Shown here piece after piece: positions 6,374-38,798 of a DNA stretch of 64,000 bases; position 1 is the first letter of the stretch, and the number at the start of each line of letters is the position of its first letter. The translations under genes were made by a program, and so were the position numbers. A model generated the notes under the pieces. It was not told where the DNA came from. It was given only the letters and a program-made list of their open reading frames with translations, and did not search any database. Source of the DNA: a virus (taxonomy: Duplodnaviria; Caudoviricetes); IMG/VR virus record IMGVR_UViG_3300020576_007607, positions 5,448 through 69,447 of that record; one strand, 5' to 3'.

Positions 6374-6805
6374 CTATTGTTTTACAAGTTCCAATACCGA
6401 CAGGAATCGGTGGAATATCTTATCACGTCCTTCCTCATAGGTCAGGAAACCTGCCCAATCTATCTCCGAAGCCTGAAGCTGTTCCTTTGGGACAATTTCG
6501 GTTTCCAACCCTATCTCGGACAATTTGGATATCCAGACAACATAGACGTAAACCGTCTTGAACATAATCCCCCCTTTGTTGACATAATCGACCCGAATCG
6601 GATTTTTCGGGTTCGATATCTGAGAAGGATTTATTTCAATCCCAACCTCCTCACGACATTCTCGTATTGCCGCTTCCAAAAAACTCTCACCCAAATCAAC
6701 ACCACCTTTGGGAAGGGAAAATGAGTTGATCCAACGGTTGTTAGTCGGATGACAAAGAAGAAGTTTGTTCCGATATATTATAGCTATTCCTGCGCTTATC
6801 TTCAT
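6374..6805 (-). CDS. NUDIX hydrolase
   Basis: PKGGVDLGESFLEAAIRECREEVG; start at MKISAG, 1 nt after the upstream stop. Confidence 0.88.
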   Translation of the reverse strand: MKISAGIAIIYRNKLLLCHPTNNRWINSFSLPKGGVDLGESFLEAAIRECREEVGIEINPSQISNPKNPIRVDYVNKGGIMFKTVYVYVVWISKLSEIGLETEIVPKEQLQASEIDWAGFLTYEEGRDKIFHRFLSVLELVKQ

Positions 6806-6806
6806 A

Positions 6807-7271
6807 TTAGTCCAAATGTCTTGCGTCTTTATGACTTCCCTTTGGATGTTTGTTGTGAGTCCAAAGTCTGCAGAAAGGAGTTGTGAAATAATCGTTGTAT
6901 ATAAGGGTATCATCTATGTGAAGATCGATACTATGTTTGGCGCAGTACTCACCTTTTGTTTTGTCCCATTCATCATCTGATATCTGTGGAAACCCATATT
7001 TTGGATGAATTCCATTGGTTGGTGTTCCTTTTTCTCGGTGATAATCAGATATCGAGAAAAAATGAGTCCATCTTATCTTGTAATCCTCCAAAAGTTTGAC
7101 ATCTTTCTCCGACGTTCCACCAGTTATTATATGAACCTCTCCACCAGAGTCTATTATCGCCTTAGTGAAAAAAGAGAAGAATTCAGGCATTGAATCTATA
7201 ACACCGTGCAGATCTAGACCAACCTTGTAAGGTCTACCTAAACTCTCAGAGATTTTAGAAAACTTATACAT
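6807..7271 (-). CDS. HAD-superfamily phosphatase-like protein
   Basis: VGLDLHGVID motif I variant, IITGG motif II, HIDD motif IV. Confidence 0.7.
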   Translation of the reverse strand: MYKFSKISESLGRPYKVGLDLHGVIDSMPEFFSFFTKAIIDSGGEVHIITGGTSEKDVKLLEDYKIRWTHFFSISDYHREKGTPTNGIHPKYGFPQISDDEWDKTKGEYCAKHSIDLHIDDTLIYNDYFTTPFCRLWTHNKHPKGSHKDARHLD

Positions 7272-7738: not shown

Positions 7739-9022
7739 TTATTTCAACAATATCCTATTTGGCATCCCAGGCATGTATATCCCAATCAGATCCACCAACT
7801 CCTTCTTAACGACAGGAGTCAAGCTTTTCGATCTTTCCCTGTTCAGCAAGGTCATCCACTCACTGACCACCTTATTGAACTTGAACGACTCGGTATACCC
7901 GAATATCCTTTTCCTGAACTGGTCGACATCAATCGTGTCGTCACCTTCCCTGGACATCCATTCGGAAAAGCGGGAGACGAACCGCTCGACACCCGAGATG
8001 TTCCGATCCGACCAAACACCACCGTCAAAGAAATGAGAAATAAACATCAAATAGAATCTCATGATGTCAGAATCGTAGTCGTCTGGATTGACAACATTTC
8101 CTCTTGACTTTGACATCTTATTCCCATCACCCGCCAATATCATTCCGTTATGGATCAATTTTTTGAATGGTTCTTCACATGGAACTACACCAATGTCATA
8201 CAAAAACATATGTATGAAACGACTGTATATCAAATGATTAGTGGCCAATTCCACCCCGCAACAGTAGGTATCAACCTGTCTGTACTTCTCCATTGAACAG
8301 ATCTCATTTCGGTTTTCTGGATCACAATACCTGATGAAATAAAAAGATGAGTCCACAAAGGTGTCCAATGTATCAGTTTCACCTTCGATCGGTATCGGAG
8401 CCCCGAATTTCCTCTGCCTACCAACCGACCAATCTTTCAAATTTGTCAACCAGTTTCTCTGTATTTTCTTAGTAGATTCTGGATAGTCCAACCAATCCAA
8501 GTTTTTAATCAACCTCTCACGGTAATCTGTTATCCTAAAATACCACTGGTCCATCTTTCTGATCTCAATCCTTTCCGAACACCTCTCACATCTGTCATCC
8601 TTGCACTGCTCGTTGGCCAAGGCAGTCCCGCACGACGGGCACCAATTGACATCGCCGAATTTCTTGTAGGCCAACCCGTGTTCCTTCAATTTGGAGAATA
8701 TCCACTGGGTCCACCTCACATATTCGGGATCATGTGTGGAAAACATCATTTCATACTCGGTTCCCATCGATGACAACTGTCTTTTGAAATTTCGGATGTT
8801 GTCCCAGGCGACATCACTCGGATCCTTACCAACTTTTTGAGCATATAATTCGGTCGGCAATCCATGAGTATCGAATCCCATCGGTTGGAATACCTCATTG
8901 CCCTGATACCTCAAGTATCTGGCGTACGAATCCATAATCCCGTAGGAATAAGCGTGTCCCATGTGAAGAGCTGATGAACTAGGAAACGGAAAGGCTGAAA
9001 GTATATAAATTTGTTTTTTCAT
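7739..9022 (-). CDS. leuS: minimal leucyl-tRNA synthetase (no CP1 editing, leucine-specific or C-terminal domain)
   Basis: AFPFPSSSALHMGH (HIGH), PMGFDTHGLPTE, CPSC/CERC Zn knuckle, QWYFRIT, DTLDTFVDSS, KMSKSRGN; QRNW joined almost directly to DWSVGRQR. Confidence 0.92.
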   Translation of the reverse strand: MKKQIYILSAFPFPSSSALHMGHAYSYGIMDSYARYLRYQGNEVFQPMGFDTHGLPTELYAQKVGKDPSDVAWDNIRNFKRQLSSMGTEYEMMFSTHDPEYVRWTQWIFSKLKEHGLAYKKFGDVNWCPSCGTALANEQCKDDRCERCSERIEIRKMDQWYFRITDYRERLIKNLDWLDYPESTKKIQRNWLTNLKDWSVGRQRKFGAPIPIEGETDTLDTFVDSSFYFIRYCDPENRNEICSMEKYRQVDTYCCGVELATNHLIYSRFIHMFLYDIGVVPCEEPFKKLIHNGMILAGDGNKMSKSRGNVVNPDDYDSDIMRFYLMFISHFFDGGVWSDRNISGVERFVSRFSEWMSREGDDTIDVDQFRKRIFGYTESFKFNKVVSEWMTLLNRERSKSLTPVVKKELVDLIGIYMPGMPNRILLK

Positions 9023-9105
9023 ATCTTTATTTTTTTTAAATGTGAGCAAATTTCTTCTCTAAATCCATAATAACAAGCTGCTCCCTATGTGTAGGGATAT
9101 GGTTT

Positions 9106-9216
9106 TTAATTAAAAAAAGAACCATCGATACAACTAAGTCCTTTTTGAATACCCATTAGTTGATGAGATCCGGAACCGGAAGGATAAGGGAAGGCGACCA
9201 ATACATATTTTTTCAT
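9106..9216 (-). pseudogene. 36-aa ORF whose first 18 aa resemble a LeuRS N-terminus
   Basis: MKKYVLVAFPYPSGSGSH matches the LeuRS FPYPSGxGLH motif, then diverges. Confidence 0.65.
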
Positions 9217-9239
9217 AATTCTATTTTTTATTTTTGGCA

Positions 9240-9270
9240 CAAAAAAACCGGACCTTTTGAGTCCGGTTTT
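9240..9270 (-). terminator. attenuator terminator hairpin
   Basis: AAAACCGGAC-TCAAAAG-GTCCGGTTTTTTT on the minus strand. Confidence 0.85.
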
Positions 9271-9288
9271 CAGATGAAGCAAAATCAT

Positions 9289-9348
9289 TCACTTCCGAAC
9301 TCTGGTCGGGATTGAAAGTAGAGCAAGAAGCAATGAATTCTGTTTCAT
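9289..9348 (-). promoter_or_regulatory. leucine leader peptide MKQNSLLLALLSIPTRVRK
   Basis: TTG CTT CTT GCT CTA CTT (5 Leu in 6 codons); GAGTTCGG (9302-9295) can pair with the terminator arm CCGGACTC (9266-9259). Confidence 0.8.
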
Positions 9349-9356
9349 ATTGTTTG

Positions 9357-9624
9357 TGGTTCCACCGAGAATCGAACTCAGATCTGGAGATTAGCTTACC
9401 ACTATGATTTTCATCACCTTTCGTTTGTGGTCTGGACTTTACCTTTACCATATTGTTTCCAACTTAGGTAATCGCCATCAAGTCTCTACACCTTCTATTT
9501 TAATAGCTTGGCTCGGTATTGGCATTTTAAAGCGTTCACCGAATTTGACGATATCCAACAAATCAATTTCTTGATAAGTCGCTCCATTAAAAGTCACCCG
9601 TTTTATCCATTAAACTATGGAACC
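9357..9624 (-). tRNA. tRNA-Leu(UAA), intron-containing; exons 9624-9591 and 9411-9357
   Basis: Acceptor GGTTCCA/TGGAACC + A73, D-arm GTTT/AAAC, anticodon loop CTT^AAAA, 21-nt variable region, T-arm CTGAG-TTCGATT-CTCGG; CCA not encoded. Confidence 0.88.
9412..9590 (-). ncRNA. group I intron (IC3-like), 179 nt, no ORF
   Basis: P/Q/R/S cores GTCAAATTCGGTGAA, AATACCGAGCCAAGC, GAAGGTGTAGAGACTTGATGGCG, AAGGTAAAGTCCAG; P1 CTT/GAG; GAAA loops in P2, P8 and P9; terminal G. Confidence 0.9.
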
Positions 9625-9635
9625 GTTTGTTTTGT

Positions 9636-9652
9636 TATATATTACAAATATA
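9636..9652 (-). promoter_or_regulatory. tandem TATATTTG and TAATATATA motifs upstream of the tRNA
   Basis: Both recurrent motifs lie 12-28 nt before tRNA G1. Confidence 0.65.
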
Positions 9653-10151: not shown

Positions 10152-10622
10152 TTAGATTATTCTGATGTTGGTGATTTCAATTTCTAGTTTTCCGGCGGGG
10201 ATATCAACCTCGATATGATCTCCGACTCTATGGTTCATAAGTGATTTTCCAATCGGGCTGTTTGGTGATATTTTTCCTTCCTTCAGGTTTATTTCATGCT
10301 CGGGAACAATCCTATATTCGGTTTCCTTTCCAGTTTTCTTATTTTTGAACTTGACCCATGTCAGAAGTTGGACAGTACCATCATCTATAACCCCTTCGAT
10401 TATCTGACAGTTGGAAAGTATCTTCCCAATCTTACTCATCTTGTCGTTTAAATCATCCAAAGCCTGTTTGGCCACATCATACTCTGCATTCTCACTCAAG
10501 TCACCCTTATCCCTAGCATCACTAAGATTTTGAAGACATTCCCTAAGATCAACACTCTTCATGTGTTGAAGTTCAGATTCCATTTTCAAATATCCCTCAC
10601 GGGTCATTGGTATTTTTTCCAT
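10152..10622 (-). CDS. greA: transcription elongation factor GreA
   Basis: MTREGY, ARDKGDLSENAEY, ISPNSPIGKSL. Confidence 0.93.
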   Translation of the reverse strand: MEKIPMTREGYLKMESELQHMKSVDLRECLQNLSDARDKGDLSENAEYDVAKQALDDLNDKMSKIGKILSNCQIIEGVIDDGTVQLLTWVKFKNKKTGKETEYRIVPEHEINLKEGKISPNSPIGKSLMNHRVGDHIEVDIPAGKLEIEITNIRII

Positions 10623-25320: not shown

Positions 25321-25366
25321 ATGTGTATATATTAAAAACAACATCCGAAATTTTAATATAAAACAT

Positions 25367-30500: not shown

Positions 30501-30541
30501 TTTTTTTTTATAATATATAGTATTATAAAAAAAAAAAGGAT

Positions 30542-38735: not shown

Positions 38736-38798
38736 TTAAACTTTCTAATCTTTTTGTTATATATTAAATAATCCACCATTCTATTCAATCATTTTGAC

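Follow-up and report, generated by a model that had tools for sequence, protein, structure and literature searches.

A predicted leucine attenuator upstream of a minimal leucyl-tRNA synthetase gene in huge phages

Attenuation by a leader peptide, familiar from textbooks on bacteria, has been documented in biosynthetic operons and at a small number of synthetase genes. In the Escherichia coli pheM-pheST system, a Phe-rich leader peptide controls phenylalanyl-tRNA synthetase, and less charged tRNA leads to more transcription of the synthetase. Here we describe a viral locus in which a Leu-rich leader and a terminator precede the gene for a minimal leucyl-tRNA synthetase (mini-LeuRS), with an intron-bearing tRNA-Leu(UAA) gene upstream of both; it lies in a 64-kb window (the whole stretch of DNA analyzed, 64,000 nt) of a 69-kb IMG/VR virus record, IMGVR_UViG_3300020576_007607, with all of its elements on the minus strand. 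Like pheM-pheST, the locus is predicted to combine a leader rich in the cognate amino acid with a terminator/antiterminator directly upstream of the cognate synthetase. Unlike pheM-pheST, it concerns another amino acid and another enzyme, belongs to a phage and has no sequence relationship to the E. coli system, whose transcript carries no tRNA gene. Classical attenuators have also been predicted before the leuS genes of Streptomyces avermitilis and S. coelicolor (PMC1262725), and huge phages carry tRNAs and synthetases, as described in a report that mentions neither attenuators nor introns (PMC7162821). Our literature search found no paper on a leader-peptide attenuator in a phage, whether on a phage synthetase or on phage tRNAs.

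We consider it probable that a ribosome-mediated leucine attenuator of the trpL/leuL/pheM type gates transcription of the phage mini-LeuRS. Transcription would start at a conserved promoter box, and the short leader would be translated while it emerges. With charged tRNA-Leu in ample supply, the ribosome would reach the stop codon and cover segment 2 of the transcript; the terminator would then form and transcription would stop at its run of seven uridines (U7). With charged tRNA-Leu scarce, the ribosome would stall on the Leu run and cover segment 1, leaving segment 2 to pair with the 5′ arm of the terminator, and this pairing would let RNA polymerase continue into the LeuRS gene. With no translation at all, hairpin A (segments 1:2) would form, and the terminator would form too. 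The leader–terminator–LeuRS unit would be the ancestral state in a clade of mini-LeuRS genes from huge phages. In the window phage, two later events would have modified it: the insertion of an intron-bearing tRNA-Leu(UAA) gene between promoter and leader, and a recombination that replaced LeuRS and left a 217-nt scar, which read-through transcripts would have to cross to reach the current LeuRS.

In the window, the leader holds five Leu within six consecutive positions (codons at 9333-9316), and the terminator that follows has its stem at 9270-9244 and its U7 at 9247-9241. The leader region folds with a minimum free energy (MFE) of -37.6 kcal/mol (z = -4.5), which none of 200 shuffles equals. 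A simple terminator scan missed this main terminator because its stem runs into the U run, and RNAfold was relied on instead; the terminator of one relative, L013, is of the same subtype. Masked-ribosome folding, in which the nascent transcript is cut before the 3′ arm of the terminator and a ribosome-sized mask is applied, gave the states that an attenuator would need. When the ribosome is stalled on the Leu run, the duplex GAGUUCGG:CCGGACUC forms (-14.3 kcal/mol) and takes 6 of the 10 nt of the terminator 5′ arm; with no ribosome, or with the ribosome at the stop codon, that arm is left free, the duplex being absent at the stop. From the sequence alone, the leader is predicted to be translated and read-through to depend on Leu. 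Rfam leader families (Leu, Phe and other) and the T-box family gave no matches at the window locus at E up to 10, and the T-box covariance model likewise found nothing upstream of the window synthetase, either at its gathering threshold or at E up to 10.

The unit recurs among relatives of the enzyme. Our comparison set comprised the DNA around 30 mini-LeuRS loci, 24 of them distinct after near-duplicates were merged. A Leu-run leader with a hairpin and U run lies upstream of LeuRS in the window and at ten other loci (L008, L009, L013, L014, L094, L096, L097, L099, L220 and L222), whose mini-LeuRS are 63–75% identical. Among those sampled, L011 and L221 are the only clade members (at least 63% identity) without the unit; the L093 contig is truncated. 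None of 11 more distant loci (48–59% identity) has the unit, and in a group of six IMG/VR loci with a LeuRS of about 50% identity plus nine more metagenome relatives, leader and tRNA are both absent from the distant members. Leaders range from 13 to 29 codons across the relatives, with 13–19 in most loci. In seven relatives, the terminator U run ends only 19–32 nt before the LeuRS ATG, and LeuRS would therefore be transcribed there only by reading through the terminator. As a control, one of 70 ordinary bacterial LeuRS loci has any Leu-rich short open reading frame (ORF) with a terminator upstream of LeuRS, and that match is weak.

Both the codons and the folds of these leaders bear marks of constraint. 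The Leu frame is the sole open frame in all 11 loci, and Leu makes up 57 of their 175 leader residues (33%), versus 7.2% in the long ORFs of the window. All six Leu codons are in use and the flanking residues vary; an open Leu frame with varying flanks is the pattern expected if codon identity, beyond RNA structure, is under selection. Most relatives have the two-hairpin layout as their minimum-energy fold. In a ten-sequence alignment (A2; structure strings from L009), 75.6% of cells are paired for hairpin A and the terminator, versus 39–51% in slid controls, with a covariation score (0.225) that 0 of 500 shuffles reached; for the antiterminator (segment 2 with the terminator 5′ arm), the figures are 76.6% versus 31–44%, and 33 of 500 shuffles reached its score. 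The 2:3 duplex beats shuffles in eight of the nine parsed loci, its sequence changing jointly with that of the terminator, and the three-state switch is reproduced in the window and in most of the ten relatives. A covariance model of the element (R1) finds a single copy in the window's record, none in 80 scanned intron-motif loci and weak matches elsewhere. In silico, a leucine attenuator on the mini-LeuRS is well supported: a preliminary description of the window had proposed a classical attenuator before the synthetase, and the ten other loci, the covarying alternative pairings and the lack of promoter room in seven relatives speak for that proposal.

The promoter assignment draws on the window and its relatives alike. 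A box of the TAnnTTTG type occupies 9652-9645; the exact 14-mer TTTGTAATATATAA (9648-9635) occurs once in the window. Related boxes are enriched, with 12 matches at up to two mismatches against 0.85 expected, and over-represented TAATATATA-type boxes probably mark a class of phage promoters; such boxes stand at 12 window sites, including 1145-1172, 25325-25338, 30507-30520 and 38753-38770. The box lies 7–17 nt upstream of the leader ATG in L008, L009, L094, L096 and L097, and we infer that it is active as a promoter. At L014 (2359-2380) and L222 (765-780), the leader ATG comes just 7 nt past the TTTG of the box, and the mRNAs that carry these two leaders would be leaderless or nearly so. The features of the window locus are collected in Table 1.

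Table 1. Elements assigned in the window, in their order along the minus strand
Feature	Position in window	Strand	Basis
Promoter-like box: TAnnTTTG-type -7 element, then TAATATATAA	9635..9652	-	Sequence and relatives
tRNA-Leu(UAA) 5′ exon, ending in CUU	9591..9624	-	ARAGORN on spliced sequence; junction homology
Predicted group I intron, 179 nt, between U34 and A35	9412..9590	-	Rfam RF00028
tRNA-Leu(UAA) 3′ exon: 21-nt variable region, T arm, acceptor strand, discriminator A9357	9357..9411	-	
Leader ORF MKQNSLLLALLSIPTRVRK, 19 codons and stop	9289..9348	-	Direct reading
Hairpin A (segments 1:2): Leu-codon arm paired with the segment that surrounds and follows the stop codon	9274..9348	-	MFE fold
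Segment 2 core GAGUUCGG, can pair with terminator 5′ arm CCGGACUC (antiterminator)	9295..9302	-	Masked-ribosome folding
Intrinsic terminator: 10-bp stem, 7-nt loop, U7	9241..9270	-	RNAfold
Stump of an earlier LeuRS start, ATG 24 nt past the U run	9160..9216	-	15/17 residues as in the N-terminus of P0009, E = 1e-9
Remnant: 3′ arm of a second-subtype terminator and following sequence	9095..9139	-	83% over 48 nt to L094 1288-1335, E = 1.4e-8
Remnant: 3′ end of a GIY-YIG endonuclease-like gene	9023..9082	-	Homology with L094 from 2365 and L093 from 519
Mini-LeuRS, 427 aa	7739..9022	-	TIGR00396, 378 bits; best PDB match 3ziu

Between attenuator and synthetase, the window differs from its relatives in holding the 217-nt scar, and the "duplicate N-terminus" found there is, as judged from its homologies, part of a mosaic left by recombination. 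The stump, whose first 17 residues agree at 15 positions with the N-terminus common to the family, belongs to a 36-codon, LeuRS N-terminus-like ORF (9216-9106), and its spacing from the U run fits the terminator–LeuRS gap of the relatives. Homology of the GIY-YIG remnant to L094 and L093 runs unbroken into the LeuRS start. In L094, a GIY-YIG gene sits between the attenuator and a LeuRS that shares the distinctive N-terminus of the window enzyme; the corresponding L095 gene matches the Pfam GIY-YIG family at 29.1 bits (cutoff 22.6). In the simplest history, the original LeuRS would have been replaced by recombination with an L094-like lineage, which has GIY-YIG between attenuator and LeuRS, and the endonuclease gene would have been deleted afterwards. 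We found in the scar no further minus-strand terminator, no unusual structure (z = +0.9) and no recurrent phage promoter box, so read-through transcripts should reach LeuRS. Coupling of attenuator and LeuRS in the window is likely, if less certain than in the relatives.

Two side observations concern the same stretch. The L094 GIY-YIG gene (1382-2419, the same as L095) has its own TAATATATA-type box upstream and an in-frame TAA after codon 166, inside the domain match, which splits one gene call; the gene may be decaying or recoded. At the junction of the half-terminator and endonuclease remnants in the window, there is a palindromic 16-nt hairpin (9082-9097), flagged by the scan as terminator-like on the plus strand only.

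The synthetase itself is a LeuRS reduced to its core. It keeps the HIGH motif (H20-H23), a four-Cys zinc module and KMSKS (302-306), and H20, G22, H23, K302, M303 and K305 are invariant in the mini-LeuRS family. LeuRS models and structures score far above those of ValRS, IleRS and MetRS for this ORF; the TIGR00396 score falls below the full-length cutoff of 548 because whole domains are absent. When the enzyme is aligned to Thermus thermophilus LeuRS, three stretches of the latter have no counterpart: 226-417 (the CP1 editing domain), 437-489 and 580-635 (the Leu-specific domain). The alignment stops near residue 770 of 878, from which we conclude that the C-terminal tRNA-binding domain is missing. 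A confident AlphaFold2 model (predicted local distance difference test score, 85.4) superposes on 3ziu with template modeling scores of 0.90–0.92. That structure, the LeuRS of Mycoplasma mobile, naturally lacks CP1 and is the best match in both sequence and fold; like the phage enzyme, it carries a short peptide where the Leu-specific domain would be (PMC3643597). The phage enzyme is smaller still, by 210 residues, and lacks the distal anticodon-binding region and the C-terminal tRNA-binding domain. Our searches revealed a large family of such proteins (412–442 aa, 58–75% identity), several of them on contigs of 375–780 kb.

Several observations weigh against a working attenuator at these loci. 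The antiterminators are weaker than the terminators (about 5–10 bp and -6 to -14 kcal/mol, versus stems of 10–13 bp), their covariation is modest, and the contrast of the pairing figures with slid controls is inflated by structure strings taken from a single member (L009). In L008, L014 and L097, the antiterminator already appears in the fold without a ribosome. At the window locus, the folded tRNA ends 8 nt before the leader ATG and could hinder the prompt ribosome loading that coupling needs, and the scar with its translatable 36-codon stump lies between terminator and LeuRS, where a cryptic promoter is possible. Finally, the C-terminal domain that the phage enzyme lacks is important for tRNA binding and charging in bacterial LeuRS (PMC3561953), and charging by the phage enzyme is a prediction. 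The scar in particular invites a reading, which we regard as unlikely, in which the family is real and the window phage carries a relic: recombination would have uncoupled the attenuator, the terminator would now end the tRNA transcript, and LeuRS would be expressed from an unrecognized promoter in or near the scar. Its mosaic of stump ORF, half terminator and endonuclease remnant would fit such a history, as would a window spacing unlike the 19–32 nt of the relatives, a TTTG-containing stretch about 30 nt upstream of the LeuRS ATG, and the L094 LeuRS, which is likewise set apart from its attenuator, by a whole gene. However, the window keeps an intact leader ORF, hairpin A, segment 2 and terminator, which fold correctly into the three-state switch; the promoter-like box of the L094 endonuclease gene is deleted there, and the scar, as described above, has neither a barrier to read-through nor a recurrent promoter box.

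Readings that dispense with leucine sensing altogether fare worse across the relatives. It is highly improbable that the U7 hairpin is simply a tRNA terminator, the Leu ORF a by-product of its pyrimidine-rich arm and LeuRS independently expressed. The Leu codons do sit in a paired arm, where RNA structure by itself constrains the sequence, C/U-rich sequence readily yields Leu codons, and terminators after tRNA genes are ordinary; yet the leader–terminator unit stands in ten relatives without a tRNA at that place, every relative keeps an ATG-to-stop Leu frame with variation at the other residues, all six Leu codons occur, and seven relatives leave no space for another promoter, against a control rate of 1/70. 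We would give extremely little weight to the leader acting as a functional hydrophobic micropeptide, or the hairpin–terminator transcript as a small regulatory RNA. The leaders do resemble a short hydrophobic segment, and a transcript ending at the terminator would measure about 110 nt and be stable and structured. Against this, the 13–19 residues of most loci are too short for a membrane span and the Leu run alone is conserved; the position is always directly upstream of LeuRS (in L222, of tRNA-Leu genes), and the conserved alternative pairing with the terminator arm would be left unexplained. A leucine attenuator on the mini-LeuRS remains our preferred account.

The tRNA gene spans 9624-9357, with a 7-bp acceptor stem, a canonical 5-bp anticodon stem and no encoded CCA. 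By default, ARAGORN calls no tRNA in the whole window; its intron mode recovers the gene under the label tRNA-Stop(tta), and the spliced sequence is called as tRNA-Leu(taa) with a score of 109.5. The intron matches Rfam RF00028 at 57.7 bits (gathering score 50; E = 4.9e-12). Its splice junction (...GACUU / intron ...G / AAAAUC) is identical in 20 of 20 distinct viral tRNA-Leu(UAA) introns, and this identity sets the intron at 9590-9412 and the anticodon as UAA (Leu). Both the U at -1 with the terminal G and the insertion at U34^A35 are present. That the tRNA is instead an ochre suppressor (anticodon UUA) is barely credible: ARAGORN's intron mode does put the splice site two bases later at a slightly higher score (114.7 versus 109.5), but the junction agrees with the viral introns and with the classical CUU/...g/AAAA type, Rfam places the splice-site U at the same base as the Leu reading, and a suppressor would require 2 nt at position 26 as well as an anticodon stem closed by a C-A mismatch. 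The tRNA-Stop(tta) call was rejected on junction homology and tRNA geometry.

The tRNA-Leu(UAA) intron has a well-described counterpart, the cyanobacterial and plastid group I (IC3) intron of type Leu.3Ug, with which it shares the U34^A35 site, the junction and the conserved core; the classical junction type there is CUU/a...g/AAAA (bioRxiv 10.1101/2020.01.27.920355). The window intron differs in being phage-borne, within a predicted regulated transcription unit, and shorter than the other sampled viral examples (179 nt versus 186–263 nt in viral tRNA-Leu introns), with a minimal P1. We found no paper describing a tRNA-Leu(UAA) intron of the cyanobacterial/plastid type in phages. The core is about 80–82% identical to IMG/VR tRNA introns; the 179-nt intron is predicted to splice. 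When viral contigs were scanned for the intron core motif, more than 120 stretches came up, and in 80 of these ARAGORN called an intron-bearing tRNA 53 times, 29 of them tRNA-Leu(UAA). By these calls, an intron in viral tRNA-Leu is common regardless of context and not rare by itself. No LeuRS homologue was found by tblastn with the window LeuRS at any of 120 viral loci with the core motif, and the exact T-arm/acceptor pattern of the window tRNA had no matches in viral contigs. In IMG/VR loci L100-L179, group I introns also occur in viral tRNA genes for Arg(UCU), Arg(CCG), Lys, Ala, Pro, Thr, Ser, Asn, Phe and Gln. Some of the intron-bearing tRNAs there are called with stop anticodons (tca, cta), and such ARAGORN calls need checking, as the window tRNA illustrates.

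The window tRNA looks to have been inserted between promoter and leader, into a short 5′ untranslated region (UTR), and a CAAAC direct repeat flanks it on either side. Because it stands upstream of the terminator, every transcript would yield the tRNA, independent of attenuation, and the leader mRNA must be the tRNA 3′ trailer, a relationship already proposed in the preliminary description and borne out by the placement of both in one transcription unit. Processing of the tRNA 3′ end would release a leader mRNA with an 8-nt 5′ UTR, comparable with the relatives, whose inferred UTRs are very short. We found a tRNA between promoter box and leader in no relative, so the order leader–terminator–LeuRS holds as conserved synteny and the tRNA position does not. 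L222, whose LeuRS is 65% identical, has leader and terminator followed by a tandem tRNA array abutting the LeuRS start; ARAGORN calls six tRNAs there and Rfam confirms five, with anticodons called as UAA, UAG, GAG and CAA. Lying downstream of the terminator, these tRNAs would be gated together with the enzyme. Their sequences are unrelated to the window tRNA, which indicates that tRNA-Leu genes joined the locus at least twice, at different positions. In the L222 array (931-1500), the genes have no spacers; the first (931-1007) is the one without Rfam confirmation, and that at 1094-1176 has a 6-nt anticodon loop, given by ARAGORN as a two-base anticodon. A more distant mini-LeuRS (L018:1-5800, 54% identical, on a 455-kb contig) lies in a tRNA-rich stretch with eight ARAGORN calls, including Leu(GAG), Leu(CAA) and Leu(UAA) with a 71-nt insert; a Leu leader is absent there. 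We also considered whether the window leader avoids UUA because the co-transcribed tRNA reads it, and rejected this: TTA makes up just 7% of the genome-wide Leu codons, among which CTT is the most frequent. The TTA-rich leaders of relatives track the lower GC content of those loci.

On the minus strand, the locus runs from the promoter box through the split tRNA-Leu(UAA), the Leu-rich leader, the terminator and the LeuRS-like stump to the mini-LeuRS. The preliminary description had listed promoter, intron-bearing tRNA-Leu, Leu attenuator and mini-LeuRS as contiguous and co-oriented, with the leader ATG 8 nt past the tRNA discriminator, and all of these parts are confirmed, as is the 8-nt distance. 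Of its interpretation, the Leu attenuator on LeuRS is strongly supported by the comparisons above, whereas the tRNA as part of a conserved module is not supported. Its further suggestions, of an intron that conceals the anticodon and of a module that counteracts anticodon nucleases, would be speculation, and we found no support for the intron hiding the anticodon for a purpose specific to the window locus. The completeness estimated by CheckV for the 69-kb record (about 13%) suggests a genome of several hundred kilobases. Megablast of the locus region against deposited phage genomes returned no matches. The neighbors, both phage-encoded, include a complete GreA/GreB-type transcript-cleavage factor immediately upstream of the module (10152-10622, minus strand) and, downstream, a NUDIX hydrolase (6374-6913, minus strand).

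This regulator is of interest because it is viral, conserved in a huge-phage clade, tied to a minimal synthetase and directly testable. It would represent viral leader-peptide attenuation, conserved across a phage clade (a contig class of about 0.4–0.8 Mb), in front of a naturally minimized LeuRS. If true, these phages would gauge how much translation capacity the infected cell has and supply more of a specific charging activity when it is needed, and it would become possible to test directly why large phages bring along tRNAs and synthetases, a question of long standing. More tentatively, and as a possibility that we rate below even chances, huge phages may run a self-contained, feedback-controlled leucine-decoding unit, in which the attenuator reads the Leu-tRNA supply on the host ribosome and switches on the minimal LeuRS, together with the tRNA-Leu set in L222. 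In the window phage, tRNA and sensor would share one transcript, tRNA 3′ processing would make a near-leaderless sensor mRNA, and an enzyme without editing and C-terminal domains would be specialized for the phage's own unusual tRNA-Leu; the unit could be one case of a general, unpublished strategy of amino-acid-matched attenuators on large-phage translation genes. The 427-aa LeuRS is also a natural experiment in minimal class Ia synthetases, with possible use in orthogonal translation systems. In addition, the locus appears to record a recombination scar with a GIY-YIG remnant and two independent recruitments of tRNA-Leu.

Among described regulators, the Streptomyces leuS attenuators are the nearest functional precedent, with a Leu-codon leader ORF, an antiterminator and a terminator before leuS. 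They are computational predictions on GC-rich actinobacterial chromosomes and precede a full-length LeuRS, and homology to the phage element is not expected. T-box riboswitches on Firmicutes leuS serve the same goal, sensing uncharged tRNA-Leu and inducing LeuRS by antitermination; they differ in binding the tRNA directly, without a need for translation. In architecture, the phage element resembles E. coli leuL, trpL, hisL, pheL and ilvL, with the same 1:2, 2:3 and 3:4 layout, in which segment 1 contains a run of regulatory codons and the stop codon is close to segment 2. Unlike these leaders of biosynthetic operons, the phage leaders are shorter and would be read from nearly leaderless mRNAs.

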